Shown here: positions 3,613 to 43,112 of the stretch, piece by piece
How positions within the stretch are numbered: the first letter of the stretch is position 1
Layout of the letters: every line of letters begins with the position of its first letter
From: an uncultured Gemmatimonadaceae bacterium
GTDB taxonomy: Bacteria; Gemmatimonadota; Gemmatimonadetes; Gemmatimonadales; Gemmatimonadaceae
DNA: 64,000 bases
Direction of reading: 5' to 3'
Assembly (NCBI GenBank): GCA_963761305.1
Contig: CAVXGK010000002.1
Span: forward strand, 160,001 to 224,000
Notes under the pieces: model-generated
Databases searched by the model: none
What the model saw: only the letters and a program-made list of their open reading frames with translations
What the model was told of the DNA's origin: nothing
Translations under genes and position numbers: made by a program

Positions 3613-4080
3613 TCAGGCCGGCCGGTATCCGTAGCCCCGCGCCATCGACACCGCGGCCGCGACCATCGCGACGAGCAACGCGATCTGGACGTAGCTGATC
3701 GCGCTGATTCGTCTCGCGACCGTCTCGTCCGGCTTCCACGCGGCTCCGAGGCGGCGGCCCATGCCGCGCCAGCGGATGAGCGTGATCATTGGCCAGATCT
3801 CGAGCAGGAAGATGAGGCCGAAGAGCCGCATCTTCGTGAGAAAAATGAAATCGTGTGTGTAGTAGGACGTGGTCTTCTCCGTGGCGCCGAACAGCCGCCA
3901 AAGACCCGACCCGATCCACAGCAAGGCCGCAATGCCCCACCAGGAGTCGCCGGCGAAGGCGCGCCGCACCGCGCCCATGTCGAGCGGGCGCACGCCGAGC
4001 GACCGGGCGCGCGACCACAATCCTCCGAGTCCGATGCCGAGCGCCAGGAGATGGACAACGGCGAGCGTCAGGCGAAGCAT
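3613..4080 (-). CDS. DUF2214-family membrane protein
   Basis: HLLALGIG...D-x-WWG-x-AA...GL-x-R...EK-x3-YY...F-x2-K pattern. Confidence 0.75.
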   Translation of the reverse strand: MLRLTLAVVHLLALGIGLGGLWSRARSLGVRPLDMGAVRRAFAGDSWWGIAALLWIGSGLWRLFGATEKTTSYYTHDFIFLTKMRLFGLIFLLEIWPMITLIRWRGMGRRLGAAWKPDETVARRISAISYVQIALLVAMVAAAVSMARGYGYRPA

Positions 4081-15180: not shown

Positions 15181-17883
15181 TCAGAGCCAGGAGCCGAAGC
15201 GCCGAATGTACCAGCCTTTCACGATCTGCGTCAGCACGGAATACGACAGCAGGATCACGACGAGCCAGGCGAAGTAGCTCGTCGGAAGCGGCACGAGTCC
15301 CAGTTTTGCGCCGAGCGGAATGAACGGCAACACGAGACCGGCGGCGATGATCGCGCCGGTGGTGAACAACACCGGCAGCGTCGCGCGGCTCTGGACGAAG
15401 GGCAGCTTGGCGGTGCGAATCATGTGGACGATGAGCGTCTGCGTCGCCAACGACTCGATGAACCATCCCGACTGAAACAACGCCTGCCGTGCCGGCGCGT
15501 TGGCGCGGAACACGTACCACATCACGAGAAACGTGACGACGTCGAAGATCGAGCTGATCGGCCCGATGAAAATCATGAATCGGCCGATGTCGTCGGCCCG
15601 CCATTGCCGCGGAACCCGGATGTACTCCGGGTCCATGTCGTCCCACGGAATCGCCGCCTGCGAGAAATCGTACAGCAAATTCACCGTCAGCAGCTGCACG
15701 GGAAGCATGGGGAGAAACGGCAGAAACGCGCTGGCGATCAGCACACTAAAAACGTTTCCGAAGTTCGAGCTCGCCGTCATCTTGATGTACTTGATCGTGT
15801 TGCCGAAGGTGCGACGCCCTTCGACCACGCCCTCCTCGAGCACCATCAGACTTTTCTCGAGGAGGATGATGTCCGCCGACTCCTTGGCGATGTCCACCGC
15901 CGAGTCGACCGAGACGCCGACGTCGGCCTGACGCAGCGCGCCGGCGTCGTTGATGCCGTCGCCCAGAAAGCCGACCGTGTGGCCGCGCGCCCTGAGCGAG
16001 CGCACGATGCGCGTCTTGTCGTCGGGCGTGAGCTTGGCGAACACCCTGTGCTCGGCGGCGATCGCGCCGACAGCGGCGTCGTCCAATCCGGCGAGCTCCT
16101 GTCCGAGCACGATGTGCCCGACGTCGAGACCGACGTCGCGGCAAATCTTGCGCGTCACCAGATCGTTGTCGCCGGTGAGGATCTTGACGGTGATCCCCTG
16201 TGCGGCAAGCGCTTTCAGCGCCGGTCCGGCGGACTCCTTCGGCGGATCGAGGAAGCCGATGAATCCGGCAAGGACCATGTCGGACTCGTCGGCGATCGAG
16301 TAGGGGCCGTGCGTCGTGGGAAAGAGCCGATACGCCACGGCTACGACGCGAAACCCGTCCTCGTTCATCTCGGCGACCAGCTCGCGGGCATCCTCGCGGC
16401 GTTCCGCTTCGAGTTCGACGACCTGCGCCTCTCCGTCGTGCGCGCGTTCGTCGCGCACGCGTGTGCAAGCGGCGAGAATCTCTTCGGCCGCGCCCTTGCA
16501 GATGAGCTGATGGTCCTTGCGTTCGTGGTCGACGACGACCGACATCCGGCGCCGGGTGAAGTCGAACGGGATCTCGTCGACTTTGCCGTACGCCTTGTCG
16601 ATCGCCAGCTCTCGCTGCAACTCGGCGTGGTCGAGCACCGCGACGTCGAGCAGGTTCTTGAGTCCCGTCTGGTAGAAGCTGTTCAGGTAGGCGAGCGCGA
16701 GGACGAAATCGTCTTCCTCGCCCACGACGTTGACGTGCCGCTCCAGCACGACCTTGTCCTGCGTGAGCGTGCCGGTCTTGTCGGTGCACAGCACGTCCAT
16801 CGCGCCGAAATTCTGAATCGAGTTGAGGCGCTTTACGACGGTCTTGCGACGCGCCATCGTCACGGCGCCTTTCGCCAGATTCGTCGTGACGATCATCGGC
16901 AGCATCTCGGGGGTGAGCCCGACGGCGACGGCGAGGCCGAACAGCAGTGCCTCGACCCAATTGCCCTTGCTGAAGCCATTGAGCAGGAAGACGATCGGCA
17001 CCATCACGGCGATGAACCGGATGAAGAGCCAGCTCACCTTCTGTACGCCGACGTCGAACGCCGTCTCCACGCGCGGGCCGCCGAGACCTTTCGCCAGCCG
17101 GCCGAAGCTGGTATCGCCGCCCGTCGCGACGACGGCCGCCGTTGCGGTGCCGCTCACGACGCTCGTGCCCATGAAGCAGACCGTCGGCAGCTCGGTCAGC
17201 GATGGCGCGCCACTCGGCCGCATCGCGCGATCCACCTTCTCGACCGGCAGCGCCTCGCCGGTGAGCGACGCCTGGCTCACGAACAGGTCCTTCGCGGCGA
17301 CGACGCGCACGTCGGCCGGGATCATGTCGCCGGCCGAGAGATACACGATGTCGCCCGGCACGAGCTCGTCCATCGGGATCTCGCGTCGGCGCGTGGCGGG
17401 CGTGCTGTCCGGTTCGAACTCGTCGCCCGCGCGCTCGACCGCGGTGCTCGTACGAACCAAGGCGCGCAGCGCCTGCGCGGACTTGCCCGAGCGAAATTCC
17501 TGGACGAAGCGGAGTCCGGTGCTGAACACGACCATCGCGCCGATGACGGTCATCGCCTCGTTGTCGCCCGTCAGGCCCGACACGACGGCGAGCGTCGTCA
17601 GCAAGAAGTTGAACGGGTTGGCGAAGGCGCGGGCCAGCTCGGCGTACCAGCTCGGCGGTTTCTCGTGCGCGACCTCGTTGCGTCCGTAGCGCTGGCGACG
17701 CGCCAGGACTTCGTCGTCGGTCAGGCCTTGGCGATCGGTGTCGAGCGACGAGTACGCCGACTCCGGGTCGCAGTAGGCGAGCTCGATGAGGCGCGCGTCC
17801 AGCACCGCGGAGCCCTTCCGGGCACCGTTCTTCGCCGAAGAGGCGGGGCCGCGCGCCGGAGCGCCCGGAATGCTCGAGGCCAT
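15181..17883 (-). CDS. mgtA: Magnesium-translocating P-type ATPase
   Basis: LTGEA, GLTPEMLP, DKTGTLT, GDGINDA, SSNFGN, QSGWF-x-E motifs. Confidence 0.95.
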   Translation of the reverse strand: MASSIPGAPARGPASSAKNGARKGSAVLDARLIELAYCDPESAYSSLDTDRQGLTDDEVLARRQRYGRNEVAHEKPPSWYAELARAFANPFNFLLTTLAVVSGLTGDNEAMTVIGAMVVFSTGLRFVQEFRSGKSAQALRALVRTSTAVERAGDEFEPDSTPATRRREIPMDELVPGDIVYLSAGDMIPADVRVVAAKDLFVSQASLTGEALPVEKVDRAMRPSGAPSLTELPTVCFMGTSVVSGTATAAVVATGGDTSFGRLAKGLGGPRVETAFDVGVQKVSWLFIRFIAVMVPIVFLLNGFSKGNWVEALLFGLAVAVGLTPEMLPMIVTTNLAKGAVTMARRKTVVKRLNSIQNFGAMDVLCTDKTGTLTQDKVVLERHVNVVGEEDDFVLALAYLNSFYQTGLKNLLDVAVLDHAELQRELAIDKAYGKVDEIPFDFTRRRMSVVVDHERKDHQLICKGAAEEILAACTRVRDERAHDGEAQVVELEAERREDARELVAEMNEDGFRVVAVAYRLFPTTHGPYSIADESDMVLAGFIGFLDPPKESAGPALKALAAQGITVKILTGDNDLVTRKICRDVGLDVGHIVLGQELAGLDDAAVGAIAAEHRVFAKLTPDDKTRIVRSLRARGHTVGFLGDGINDAGALRQADVGVSVDSAVDIAKESADIILLEKSLMVLEEGVVEGRRTFGNTIKYIKMTASSNFGNVFSVLIASAFLPFLPMLPVQLLTVNLLYDFSQAAIPWDDMDPEYIRVPRQWRADDIGRFMIFIGPISSIFDVVTFLVMWYVFRANAPARQALFQSGWFIESLATQTLIVHMIRTAKLPFVQSRATLPVLFTTGAIIAAGLVLPFIPLGAKLGLVPLPTSYFAWLVVILLSYSVLTQIVKGWYIRRFGSWL

Positions 17884-17997
17884 GGGTCGGTGGGGCTGCG
17901 CCGCGAACGCTAGAGAGATCGCGAACGGTGTCAACGCTTCGTCGTACTCGCTAATGGATCCTAGTGGGCAAATGGGTTGCCGCGTTACACTTCGTGT

Positions 17998-18126
17998 AGC
18001 GCGCGCTGGGGCGCCTCCTGTCCGCGGCAAGGGAGCAATCCCACCCAACTGGTTCGTTCGTTCCACGTTTCGAACCTTCTTCCGGCCTGTACTCAGCGGA
18101 CTTCAGGCGTACACGGGAGGAGGAAC
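17998..18126 (+). ncRNA. Candidate structured cis-regulatory leader RNA
   Basis: At least six complementary helices, a GNRA-capped hairpin, a 10-bp anti-SD/SD pairing, and a -10-like TACACT at 17986-17991. Confidence 0.6.
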
Positions 18127-21100
18127 ATGTCCAGGCGTATTGCGCCCACGGATTCCCTCGAGAGTCTGAAGAGGGAGGCGAAGCGCTGGCTCAAGGCGCT
18201 TCGCGAGGACGTCGAGGACGCGCGCGACCGATTCGCGAAAGCGCTCCCCGACGCGACGGACTCGCCGACGCTCCGCACTATCCAGCACGCCCTCGCGCGA
18301 GAGTTTGGGTTTTCCGGGTGGACGGCGCTCAAGCAACACCTCGAGGCGTCCGCGACCGGCGCGCGCGCCGACGCGGCGATCGTGTCGCGGTTTCTCGACA
18401 ACGCGTGCCCTGACCATCACGTGCGCGGCGGCCCGGACCACGTCCGCGCCCGCGGCACGGCCATGCGGTTGCTCGAGCGGTACCCGGAGATCGCCAATGC
18501 GAGTTTCTATACGAAGGTCGTGTGCGGCGACCTCGCCGGCGTCCTTGGCGATCTCGACGCGAATCCGGAACTGGCCACGGCTCGAGATGGTCCGCCGCGG
18601 CCGAAGCGATCGGAGGCAGGCAATTCACGCGATCTCCTGACGAAGGACTGGGGACCGAAGGGCTGGACGCCGCTCCTCTATCTCTGCTTCACCCGCCTGC
18701 CGCTCGACGCGGTGAGCGAGAACGCGGTCGCGATCGCGACGGCACTCCTCGACCGGGGCGCGGACCCGAACGACTTCTTCATGGCCGGCGACAGCCGGTA
18801 CACGCCGTTGGTCGGCGCGATCGGCGAAGGGGAAGAGGATCGTCCGCCGCACGCGAGACGTGACGAGTTGGTGCGACTGCTCTTGGATCGCGGCGCCGAG
18901 TTCGCGTCGTCGCTGGGCAACTACGGCGGGCAGGTGATCTACAACATTCATTTCCACGGCCACGTGTTGTGGTACCTGAAGCTGATGCATGAGTACTCGG
19001 TGCGACGAGGCCGCGCCGCCGACTGGGACGATCCGGCGTGGTCCATGCTCGGGCAGGGCGGCTACGGCGACGGCGCGCGCTGGCACCTCTCGATCGCCGT
19101 GCAACACAACGACCTCGAGTTGGCCGAGTGGTGCCTCGCGCATGGAGCGAATCCAAACGCGCCTCCCGCGAACGCGAAGACCTTGCCGCAGCGTACGCTG
19201 TACGAAGAAGCGATGCGCCGCGGTGAGACGGAGATGGCCGAGTTGTTCGTGCGGTACGGGGCGCCGCGCACCGCGGTCGAGCTGTCGCCGGTCGAAGCGC
19301 TCACCGCGGCGGCGATGCGCCTCGATCGCGACGCGGTGCGCGCCCATCTCTCGCGGCATCCGGACCTGACGGCGGCGCCCCAGCCGCTCGACATGGCCGC
19401 GAGCGAGAACCGGGCCGACGTCGTCGCGTTGCTCCTCGACGTCGGCATCTCGCCCGACGTCGCCAACCGGCAGAACGAACGGCCGCTTCATCTCGCGGCG
19501 TACGCGAACGCGCTCGACGTGGCGACGCTTCTCATTGCCCATGGCGCGGAGATCGATCCCGTCGAGTCGAACTGGAGCAACACGCCGCTCGGCGCCGCGG
19601 TGTACTCCCAGCACCAGGCGATGATCGATCTGCTGAGCCGATACAGCCGCGACATCTGGGAGCTCGCGTATGCCGGAAAGCTCGAGCGCCTGCGCGACGT
19701 GCTCGCCGACGATCCCGATGGCGCTCGCGCCGCCAGCGGGGGGCAGACGCCGCTCATGTGGCTCCCGCCCGACGACGAATCGCGCGCGATGGCGATCGCT
19801 CGGCTGCTCATTGCCAACGGCGCCGATCCGTCGCCGCAAGACGCGAACGGAATGAGCGCCGCCGACCGAGCGGAACGACTGAGCATGTTCGACCTCGCCG
19901 CGATGCTGCGTCGTGCCTCGACGCCGGCGGCGCGCGCCGCCGTGGAACGGTTTCAGCGCGGAGCGGTGAATCTGCTCGACGCCTATCGCACCGGCACGCC
20001 CGAGGCGATGCAACGTCACTGGGCCGACACGTGGCATCGCCGCTCGTGGGAGGCGATGCGCCGCTACGTCCAGCTTGACCTGGGACGACCACCGGCGGGC
20101 GAGGGCGAGGACGTGCCGATCGCGCTGGGCGACGCGCGCTGGCTCATCATGCGTGACAACGGCTTCGCGAGCTGGGAATCGTTCATCGAGCACACGATCG
20201 ACCAGGCGGCGAGCCCGCGACCGCTCGCCTCCGCGCCGTTTCGCTTGCTGTCGAAGCCGACCGAAGAACTCGCCCCCGCGGTCGAGCGGACGCGCGATTG
20301 GGACGCCGCGATCGCGATGCTCCGCGCCGGCGGGCTGCCCGGACTCGACGCGAACGGACAGATGACCGACGACGTCCTCGAGCGAATCTCGCGTCTCGAG
20401 CACGTCAGCGTGCTCCGGCTCGGCGGCTCGAAACACCTCACCGACGCCGGCGTCGCCCACCTGGCCCGCATGACCGGGCTGCGCGAGCTGGATCTGGGCG
20501 GCTGCCCGATCAGCGATCGCTCATTGGAGATCCTTGGACGGCTGCCCAATCTCGAGAAGGTCGGTCTGTGGCGGACGGGCATCAGCGACGCCGGGGTCGG
20601 GCATCTCGCTAAGAGTCCGCGGCTCGTCGAGGTGGATCTCGCGTGGACGCCCACCGGCGACGGAGCCCTGCGCGCGCTGGCCGGAAAAGAGACGCTCACG
20701 CATTTCCGCAGCGGCGATCACGTCACCGACGAGGGCCTCCGGGCGCTCCACGACTATCCCGTGTTCAAATCGTGGCGCGGCGGCGAGGTCGTGCTCGGAC
20801 TCACGTCGCCCGAGGCACAGCCGAACATGCTGTTCCTGCGGGGAACTCTCACCGATCGCGGGCTCGCCAGCCTCGTCGGGCTCGACGGACTGTTCGGTCT
20901 CAACATCGACGACAGCGGCTTGGCCATTACGGCGGGCGGATTGGGACCGCTTGTCTCGCTCCCACACCTCGGCTTCCTCGCCTTCGACGCGACCGACGAC
21001 GCGATGCCGTACATCGCCGCGATGCCGCATTTGCGATGTCTCATGTGCCAGGACACCAGCGCCGGCGACGACGGCTTCGTCGCGCTCGGCCGCTCGCGGT

Positions 21101-21630
21101 CGATCGAGTACATCTGGGGTCGCCGCTGCCACAACTTGCGCTCGGGCGGCTTCGCGGCGCTCGCCGAGATTCCCACGCTCCGCTCGCTGTCGGTGAGTTG
21201 CAAGAACGTGGACGACGCCGGATTGTCGGCGCTGCCGCGGTTTCCGTCGTTGCGGGAGCTGATGCCGATGGACGTTCCCGACGACGGCTATCGGCACATC
21301 GGGCGCTGTGAAAAGCTCGAGTCGCTCGTGTTGATGTACTGCCGGGAGACGGGCGACGTTGCGACGTCTCACATCACGGGACTGGCGAACCTCAAGAAGT
21401 ATTTCGCGAGCTACACGCGAGCGACCGATCGGACGCTGCAGTTCTTGGCCGGCATCCCGTCGCTGGAATCCATCGACCTCTCGGCAATTCCCGGCATGAC
21501 GAACGCGGGGGTCGCCGCGCTCACGGCGCTGCCGCGGCTTCGCTTCCTCCGGCTGTCGGGAATGCAGCACGTCGATCTCGAGCGTGTCCGGTCGTTCAGC
21601 CCCACCGTTCGCGTCGAGCTGTCGCCATGA
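18127..21630 (+). CDS. Ankyrin-repeat plus leucine-rich-repeat protein with a duplicated small helical domain
   Basis: Strong RBS GGAGGAGG. Ankyrin motifs (TPL, LLDRGADPN, PLHLAA) and ~24-aa LRRs (LRELDLGGCPISD). ARE-x-GF-x2-W type motif occurs twice. Confidence 0.88.
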   Translation: MSRRIAPTDSLESLKREAKRWLKALREDVEDARDRFAKALPDATDSPTLRTIQHALAREFGFSGWTALKQHLEASATGARADAAIVSRFLDNACPDHHVRGGPDHVRARGTAMRLLERYPEIANASFYTKVVCGDLAGVLGDLDANPELATARDGPPRPKRSEAGNSRDLLTKDWGPKGWTPLLYLCFTRLPLDAVSENAVAIATALLDRGADPNDFFMAGDSRYTPLVGAIGEGEEDRPPHARRDELVRLLLDRGAEFASSLGNYGGQVIYNIHFHGHVLWYLKLMHEYSVRRGRAADWDDPAWSMLGQGGYGDGARWHLSIAVQHNDLELAEWCLAHGANPNAPPANAKTLPQRTLYEEAMRRGETEMAELFVRYGAPRTAVELSPVEALTAAAMRLDRDAVRAHLSRHPDLTAAPQPLDMAASENRADVVALLLDVGISPDVANRQNERPLHLAAYANALDVATLLIAHGAEIDPVESNWSNTPLGAAVYSQHQAMIDLLSRYSRDIWELAYAGKLERLRDVLADDPDGARAASGGQTPLMWLPPDDESRAMAIARLLIANGADPSPQDANGMSAADRAERLSMFDLAAMLRRASTPAARAAVERFQRGAVNLLDAYRTGTPEAMQRHWADTWHRRSWEAMRRYVQLDLGRPPAGEGEDVPIALGDARWLIMRDNGFASWESFIEHTIDQAASPRPLASAPFRLLSKPTEELAPAVERTRDWDAAIAMLRAGGLPGLDANGQMTDDVLERISRLEHVSVLRLGGSKHLTDAGVAHLARMTGLRELDLGGCPISDRSLEILGRLPNLEKVGLWRTGISDAGVGHLAKSPRLVEVDLAWTPTGDGALRALAGKETLTHFRSGDHVTDEGLRALHDYPVFKSWRGGEVVLGLTSPEAQPNMLFLRGTLTDRGLASLVGLDGLFGLNIDDSGLAITAGGLGPLVSLPHLGFLAFDATDDAMPYIAAMPHLRCLMCQDTSAGDDGFVALGRSRSIEYIWGRRCHNLRSGGFAALAEIPTLRSLSVSCKNVDDAGLSALPRFPSLRELMPMDVPDDGYRHIGRCEKLESLVLMYCRETGDVATSHITGLANLKKYFASYTRATDRTLQFLAGIPSLESIDLSAIPGMTNAGVAALTALPRLRFLRLSGMQHVDLERVRSFSPTVRVELSP

Positions 21631-43038: not shown

Positions 43039-43112
43039 CGGGACGTAGCGCAGTCCGGTAGCGCACCTGAATGGGGTTCAGGGGGTCGCGGGTTCAAATC
43101 CCGCCGTCCCGA
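43039..43112 (+). tRNA. tRNA-Pro(GGG), CCA not encoded
   Basis: Acceptor CGGGACG/CGTCCCG, D arm, anticodon stem CCTGA/TCAGG with loop ATGGGGT, T arm GCGGG-TTCAAAT-CCCGC. Confidence 0.97.

Follow-up and report, generated by a model that had tools for sequence, protein, structure and literature searches.

The window analyzed here is a 64,000-nucleotide (nt) stretch of DNA from an uncultured Gemmatimonadaceae bacterium (assembly GCA_963761305.1, contig CAVXGK010000002.1, positions 160,001 to 224,000). It contains a gene for a fusion protein of 1167 amino acids (aa), with ankyrin repeats and leucine-rich repeats (LRRs). A structured RNA leader, which we call type A, lies directly upstream of the gene. 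The protein begins with a small helical domain (the N-domain), and a second copy of this domain lies inside the protein. The features are as follows.

17986..17991, + strand: likely -10 box (TACACT), by sequence inspection; no promoter scan was run
17999..18126, + strand: type-A structured leader RNA with a double pseudoknot and a paired Shine-Dalgarno sequence (SD), from covariation in 54 leaders
18001..18014, + strand: P1 hairpin; pseudoknot 2 forms between its loop (18007-18010) and 18044-18047
18017..18027, + strand: P2 short stem; its loop contains 18020-18025, the 5' strand of pseudoknot 1
18031..18042, + strand: P3 hairpin behind a conserved NAAG, 99% paired
18075..18083, + strand: anti-SD strand; the helix is 84% paired, with a double change in 6 of 9 pairs
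18085..18108, + strand: P5 hairpin; its loop contains 18096-18101, the 3' strand of pseudoknot 1
18115..18123, + strand: SD
18127..21630, + strand: fusion gene, ATG start, 1167 aa; the start codon is preceded by GGGAGGAGG
18127..18354, + strand: N-terminal helical domain, aa 1-76, with the basic triad K15, R16, K19; predicted RNA-binding output domain
18355..19911, + strand: ankyrin-repeat region, aa 77-595, approximate boundaries from Pfam Ank families
19912..20208, + strand: internal domain copy, aa 596-694; hydrophobic core retained, triad positions Q610, R611, V614, one added helix
20359..21606, + strand: LRR region, about aa 745-1160, approximate boundaries from Pfam LRR families and stand-alone ~640-aa relatives

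The gene is real and is conserved over its full length. It gave 669 protein matches at E <=0.001, and the best 120 were mostly full length. Named homologs among these 120 were Gemmatimonadota and Acidobacteriota. The domain order is [N-domain]-ankyrins-[internal copy]-LRRs. Ankyrin families were assigned by Pfam, with the best stretch at aa 421-509 (E down to 4e-21), and LRR families were assigned at aa 759-817 and aa 963-1144. Neither small domain of the window protein was assigned a Pfam family, and no NCBIfam model matched either copy. A first-pass annotation, made by a model from the sequence alone, had described a domain that recurs internally in a protein with no signal peptide. Both segments it quoted are present in the 1167-aa open reading frame (ORF). 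No signal peptide or membrane helix was found by hydropathy, with maxima of 1.3 for the best 19-residue window and -0.69 within the first 30 positions; a dedicated signal-peptide predictor was not used.

The leader and the domain occur together across genomes. A DNA pattern for the type-A leader matched ~2600 stretches (a tool estimate, not a genome count), and we fetched 119 loci, spread over many phyla. With a profile built from an independent set, the domain was detected within 300 nt downstream in 109 of these loci. By 5-fold cross-validation it was detected in 118 of the 119, with 0 detections in control frames. In the remaining locus, the domain start is truncated. The window genome contains four leaders and four genes that start with the domain.

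We retrieved 28 domain genes from 80 Gemmatimonadota genomes, in 17 of them. A covariance model of the leader gave 26 strong matches in the same 17 genomes, each directly upstream of a domain gene. The exceptions were L173, in which the leader is deleted, and L177, which is leaderless and has lost the basic triad. Neither leader nor domain was found in 62 of the 80 genomes, and one more (G071) contained a weak match only (E 0.002). A weak match to the leader model was also found in G353 (E 0.008). Held-out Acidobacteriota genomes (n = 75) contained 10 domain genes. All seven strong leader matches were directly upstream of one of these, and one weak match was elsewhere. Three of the domain genes had no model match. 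One of these is preceded by a variant with a compensated pseudoknot, and one by a recognizable 3' half (by eye). Co-occurrence of domain and leader across genomes, as the first-pass annotation predicted, is near one-to-one in both directions (118/119; 26/28).

Families were scanned in 96 downstream proteins (76 leader-selected and 20 protein-selected, many cut at 490 aa). Ankyrin was found in 79, LRR in 1, methyltransferase in 1, VOC in 1, and no family in 14. The coupling tracks the domain and not its cargo, which may be ankyrin, LRR, methyltransferase, VOC, or DUF2087. The two repeat scaffolds had been proposed to be interchangeable. Varied cargo architectures do occur, but ankyrin dominates type A (79/96).

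Some copies of the system are variant or damaged. L199 contains a short leader variant (1420-1505) before a domain-VOC gene; it keeps the AAAGGG..CCC-CC core, and the type-A model misses it. L027 contains a leader (3874-4016) directly before an internal-type domain. L173 has its leader deleted, L055 has a truncated gene, and L178 has a frameshifted gene. Such damage suggests frequent gain and loss of the system.

The leader structure contains 33 pairs. In 54 protein-selected leaders, 91.4% of cells were paired, with a double change at 21 pairs. None of 500 shuffles scored as high, and slid controls gave 42-52%; the structure was derived from the same 54 leaders, and related sequences can beat such shuffles. 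Pseudoknot 1 is 98% paired, with a double change in 3 of 6 pairs. Covariation is also found in the P1/pseudoknot 2 region, where pair 14:56 is GC in 35 and AU in 16 of the 54, and pair 13:57 is UA in 19 and CG in 17. The 4-bp partner of pseudoknot 2 is present in 72 of the 119 pattern loci (shuffled mean 29.6, maximum 44). The P2 stem in these loci is CC/GG in 97, AC/GU in 10, and other in 12. An earlier fold, which paired GG with CC across P3, was dropped; the P2 stem with the second pseudoknot scores better. The anti-SD helix closes the 3' part of the leader, and opening the SD in the window leader costs 6.7 kcal/mol. Folded alone, the window leader was no better than shuffles (z -1.42). The structure is supported only by covariation. 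No U-tract was found from the leader to the start codon. One metatranscriptome run contained only contigs of relatives; one of these covers 18012-18198 with 9 differences. A -35 TTGACA is present in relatives and not in the window genome.

The two domain copies are homologous and have diverged. Pairwise tblastn and blastp did not link the N-terminal and internal segments, and a profile was required. The N-domain profile was built from 73 N-terminal domains at leader-selected loci, all lacking the internal-type motif, and it detects aa 596-694 at 21.9 bits (E 7.8e-9). In comparison, 300 shuffles of aa 77-1167 scored <=1.2 bits. AlphaFold2 models the N-domain as four helices (predicted local distance difference test score [pLDDT] 85). 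In a homolog with tandem N-terminal and internal copies, the internal copy was modeled with these four helices and an additional, inserted one. The profile match, the shuffle control, and this model bear out the claim that the segments are homologous. The predicted template modeling score of the tandem model was 0.63 vs 0.71 for the single domain, and a fixed packing of the copies is unsupported. Both copies were found in 110 of the best 120 homologs, the internal copy only in 7, and the N-terminal copy only in 3.

The basic triad, on helix 1, depends on position. Lysine or arginine is present at profile positions 15/16/19 in 95/94/100% of 112 N-terminal copies and in 97/79/97% of 73 diverse N-terminal copies. 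The same figures for 128 internal copies are 1/32/20%. The mean net charge is +6.3 for the 112 N-terminal copies vs -2.5 for the 128 internal copies. The internal copies retain the hydrophobic core and the G-F-x-x-W end. The window N-domain has 14 basic and 12 acidic residues, and the window internal copy has 13 and 14. Of the claim that both copies are basic, only the part on the N-terminal copy held; the internal copy lacks the triad and accompanies the LRRs. The [N][internal][LRR] arrangement also occurs as a stand-alone gene of ~640-655 aa, preceded by its own leader, among 35 loci, and the 640-aa form is abundant. The same 35 loci contain an [N][ankyrin] gene. Since both kinds of stand-alone gene occur, the window protein can be described as [N][ankyrin] joined to [internal][LRR]. 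Most likely, the internal copy caps the LRR block structurally at its N-terminal end rather than providing a second site for RNA binding, and its origin lies in [N][internal][LRR] genes. Second or third domain copies of several distinct sequence types were also found (L059, L089, L095, L163, L170, L078, L082, and L112; P0082 and P0093). This diversity of types suggests repeated duplication.

Fold searches with the domain gave little. A PDB sequence search found no structural relative (best E 0.08), and Foldseek gave no match at E <=0.001. The best VIA result had Z 4.1 and a root mean square deviation of 4.7 over 67 aligned residues. The ESM Atlas gave only unnamed clusters. The failure of these searches to find relatives does not demonstrate a new fold. 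The C-terminal half of the domain is weakly like the RpiR helix-turn-helix (HTH) domain (E 0.13).

The domain is homologous, by profile alignment, to the first ~55 residues of PF20066 (Glyoxalase_8), which form the N-terminal three-helix core. An hhalign comparison of the domain with the PF20066 N-terminus gave 96.9% (E 1.9e-10, 54 columns). The first-pass annotation had noted a likeness to the N-terminal domain of "glyoxalase superfamily" proteins, and this alignment supports it, although the window copies themselves do not match PF20066 (cut-off 23.7 bits). A loop is inserted in both, and nothing here corresponds to the C-terminal part of PF20066. Among 12 leader-selected domains, mostly short-loop picks, 8 match PF20066 and 2 exceed the cut-off. 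Across 24 PF20066 N-termini, the K, A, and R of helix 1 do not vary. PF20066 searches around the window genome and in a 121-genome sample of the class gave only sub-cut-off matches.

PF20066 genes have leaders of their own. Hyphomicrobiales contained 27 PF20066 matches in 25 of 101 genomes. A second leader class, type B, is directly upstream of 23 of these genes, and in 1 more it is one gene upstream, before a MATE gene. The Rfam COG3860 RNA precedes 2, and 1 has no leader. Type B contains a long-range six-base pairing as in type A, with several compensated variants, and L390 carries the type-A pseudoknot sequence. Nucleotide profiles of the two types miss each other's loci, and their kinship is drawn from the shared architecture and L390. 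We examined 123 type-B pattern matches. The first gene encodes the domain in 100 and MATE in 13; the domain is further on in 2, and 1 is incomplete. The other 7 were discarded as chance matches (<=5 bits; none of their genomes encodes the domain). The domain is encoded in all 13 genomes with a leader-MATE gene; it shares the operon in 2 and lies at another locus in 11. Ten of these 11 distant domain genes have their own leader, and 1 is at a contig edge. For comparison, a PF20066 domain gene is present in 25 of the 101 Hyphomicrobiales genomes. The type-B-linked MATE subfamily was found in 5 of the 101, always behind a type-B leader and always among the 25 with the domain (hypergeometric 6.7e-4 for the 5/5 overlap, with kinship ignored). 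Type-B leaders were retrieved at L203-L228, L261-L381, and L382-L395 from Alphaproteobacteria, Pseudomonas, and Actinobacteria, and with MATE they form a candidate two-locus regulon. In L293/L294, two type-B leaders are 745 nt apart. The first precedes a 169-aa gene without a Pfam family or domain-profile match.

Two more leader classes belong to the family. Rfam COG3860 RNA is directly before two DUF2087 protein genes (L227:1330-1383 and L229:1327-1381), whose N-termini match PF20066 above the cut-off, in matches also described as weak. These two proteins score just 4-6 bits against the type-A profile, so the link from COG3860 to type A is transitive. A fourth class, type D, precedes an NCBIfam PRK05973-like subfamily. 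Its loci were found with an 18-base motif taken from two loci. The domain is downstream in 111 of 120 type-D loci and in 0 controls. The genes are rhizobial PRK05973-type "DNA helicase" genes, and the domain forms the N-terminus of their products (L396, L397, and L418-L537). A CCTCC stretch able to pair with the GGAGG of the motif is present in 112 of the 120. No Rfam match at the gathering score was found for the window, type-A, type-B, or type-D leaders (10 type-D loci scanned). There are four domain subfamilies, each with its own leader class.

The neighbors of type-A genes are varied. No conserved partner was found in 24 type-A loci with long flanks. A named same-strand gene lies within 35 nt in 5 of the 24: MATE in L017 and L018, an ABC exporter in L019, and UvrA in L023 and L024. 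The MATE genes of L017 and L018 follow the same full-length fusion as the window gene. The type-A MATE is just 23% identical to the type-B MATE, and the domain-MATE link may therefore have arisen twice. The window gene is likely monocistronic, because the next gene is a convergent kinase. The VOC, MATE, ABC exporter, and UvrA cargo and neighbors point to toxic compounds or DNA damage.

The protein architecture, the covarying helices, the coupling of leader and domain in both directions, and the position-dependent basic triad are established. We consider it probable that leader and domain form an RNA-binding one-component translational regulator. The N-domain would bind the compact, SD-paired leader and hold translation down as negative feedback. 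Binding would most likely keep the leader shut, since no helix conflicts with the SD-paired state. Both repeat blocks, ankyrin and LRR, are predicted to be sensors, likely of a toxic molecule or protein. A ligand bound to these repeats would release the leader, and more of the protein, and of any exporter regulated with it, would be made. The direction may be the opposite, in an activator version. It is about an even bet that the whole family works in this way, with one helical reader diversified with at least four leader classes (A, B, D, and COG3860), swappable ligand-binding cargo, and translational stress regulons that include MATE.

Several points weigh against such a regulator. Leader and gene are cis-linked and co-inherited and the genomes are kin, so the counts overstate independence. 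Of the 26 Gemmatimonadota leader matches, 23 were in the training set of the model; the 3 held-out ones were recovered. The third missed Acidobacteriota gene (G360:C25) and L173 keep the basic triad with no recognizable leader. The N-domain of the window protein has a net charge of just +2, and the internal copy has -1. The PDB sequence search, Foldseek, VIA, and the ESM Atlas revealed no resemblance to a known RNA-binding fold. Most type-A genes, including the window gene, have no co-transcribed partner, so their output would be only the protein itself. Binding by the domain and sensing by the ankyrins and LRRs are predictions from sequence. The intricate fold with two pseudoknots, the invariant unpaired bases, and the control of an efflux pump would equally be expected of a small-molecule riboswitch.

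A riboswitch is the leading rival, and we regard it as rather unlikely. The leader would sense a small molecule or ion, the domain would be part of proteins needed with that ligand, and the different leaders would represent several classes of riboswitch, or variants, for one ligand. The two long-range pseudoknots, the invariant unpaired bases, and the paired SD all suit it, as does the MATE gene behind the leader in 13 of the 123 type-B pattern matches. Types A and B also share their architecture, down to the same pseudoknot sequence in L390. Against it stand one small N-terminal domain that is near-exclusive in the first gene product whatever the cargo (118/119) and a domain gene in every leader-MATE genome (13/13; 5/5). 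The basic triad is retained in leader-adjacent copies and lost in internal ones, and no metabolic enzyme theme was found among type-A genes. If the riboswitch is right after all, the leaders are a new riboswitch family with several classes.

We give little credence to a domain whose target is a different nucleic acid or the ribosome, as an HTH-like DNA binder or a nascent peptide in cis, with the leader under a different host factor. The weak RpiR likeness would fit, and DUF2087 is often fused to DNA-binding domains (PMC7113386). The conserved feature is RNA pairing downstream of the promoter, though, and a cis-acting peptide cannot account for leader-MATE-domain operons or for distant leader-MATE genes. 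A defense role is very improbable. Here leader and protein would be a type III-like toxin-antitoxin ribonucleoprotein, or the repeats would be orphan immunity proteins whose supply is tuned by the leader. Pseudoknot RNA antitoxins exist, and the type III systems have a tandem pseudoknot-repeat array before a ribonuclease toxin. The loci here have a single leader copy per gene and no array, and Pfam assigned no nuclease family or other catalytic domain to the window protein. Ankyrin and LRR repeats do serve as immunity proteins in polymorphic toxin systems, as described in PMC3482391. However, 94 flanking ORFs at 24 loci contained no conserved toxin or defense neighbor, and some copies are broken while the leader remains (L055).

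Several known systems resemble the proposed translational regulator. ANTAR regulators (PF03861; EutV; PMC8934654) combine a small helical RNA-binding output domain, directly coupled to varied sensors, with a structured 5' leader as its target. No PF03861 match was found in the full window protein or in either copy. The ANTAR target is dual hexaloops over an intrinsic terminator. Here the target would be a double pseudoknot with a paired SD, and the domain is N-terminal. Protein-bound autoregulatory leaders (ribosomal leaders and the protein-binding candidates of PMC11109978) likewise place a likely nucleic-acid-binding protein gene behind a structured 5' untranslated region (UTR). As in those leaders, the association is strict with the gene of one candidate binding domain (118/119; 26/28; 7/10 by model plus 2 variants by eye). 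Unlike those leaders, this system has a binding domain of no known family, swappable cargo, and a type-B leader shared with an efflux gene elsewhere. In its proposed operation the system resembles ANTAR or an autoregulatory leader, and by the tests run it belongs to neither family. It also shares a feature with translational riboswitches, namely a conserved 5' UTR whose structure can pair the SD. The Rfam COG3860 RNA (RF02940, a cis-regulatory motif) differs from the window leader in sequence and model, and it reportedly comes from one earlier paper. TipA and AlbA are ligand-binding proteins that control their own supply, as MerR-type DNA binders acting on transcription. The logic proposed here is the same, with theirs at transcription via DNA.

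Bacterial signaling via RNA-binding output domains is known from few families. The system is common, with tool estimates of ~2600 stretches for the type-A pattern, ~1000 for type B, and ~300 for type D (not genome counts), and culturable genera that contain it include Streptomyces, Pseudomonas, Rhizobium, and Burkholderia. A domain of 76 residues and an RNA of 130 nt make it experimentally tractable. The RNA-binding regulator, if real, would explain what many "ankyrin repeat proteins" and "glyoxalase superfamily proteins" of soil bacteria do. It would provide a partner and mechanism for the orphan COG3860 motif, a function for the PF20066 N-terminus, and RNA-level control of efflux, and it would be a translation-level counterpart of ANTAR. 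DUF2087 has been proposed to bind nucleic acids (PMC7113386). No paper on the type-A leader or on the function of the domain was found in a literature search that left most subscription papers outside. The main text of PMC5737381 does not mention the leader or domain terms, and the supplements of PMC5737381 and PMC11109978 may list these motifs.

A gene for an MgtA-like P-type ATPase (15181-18066, - strand) is divergent from the fusion gene, and its listed GTG start overlaps the leader. Relatives suggest that the true ATPase start is near 17885. The promoter region is unlike the TTGACA region of close relatives. Genes for the domain or for related ankyrin proteins often lie a few kb or less from one another (G100:C1:1136114-1148747; L030; L098/L099; L014; L018; L010). 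The only Rfam match in the 64-kb window was a tRNA (43039-43112, + strand).

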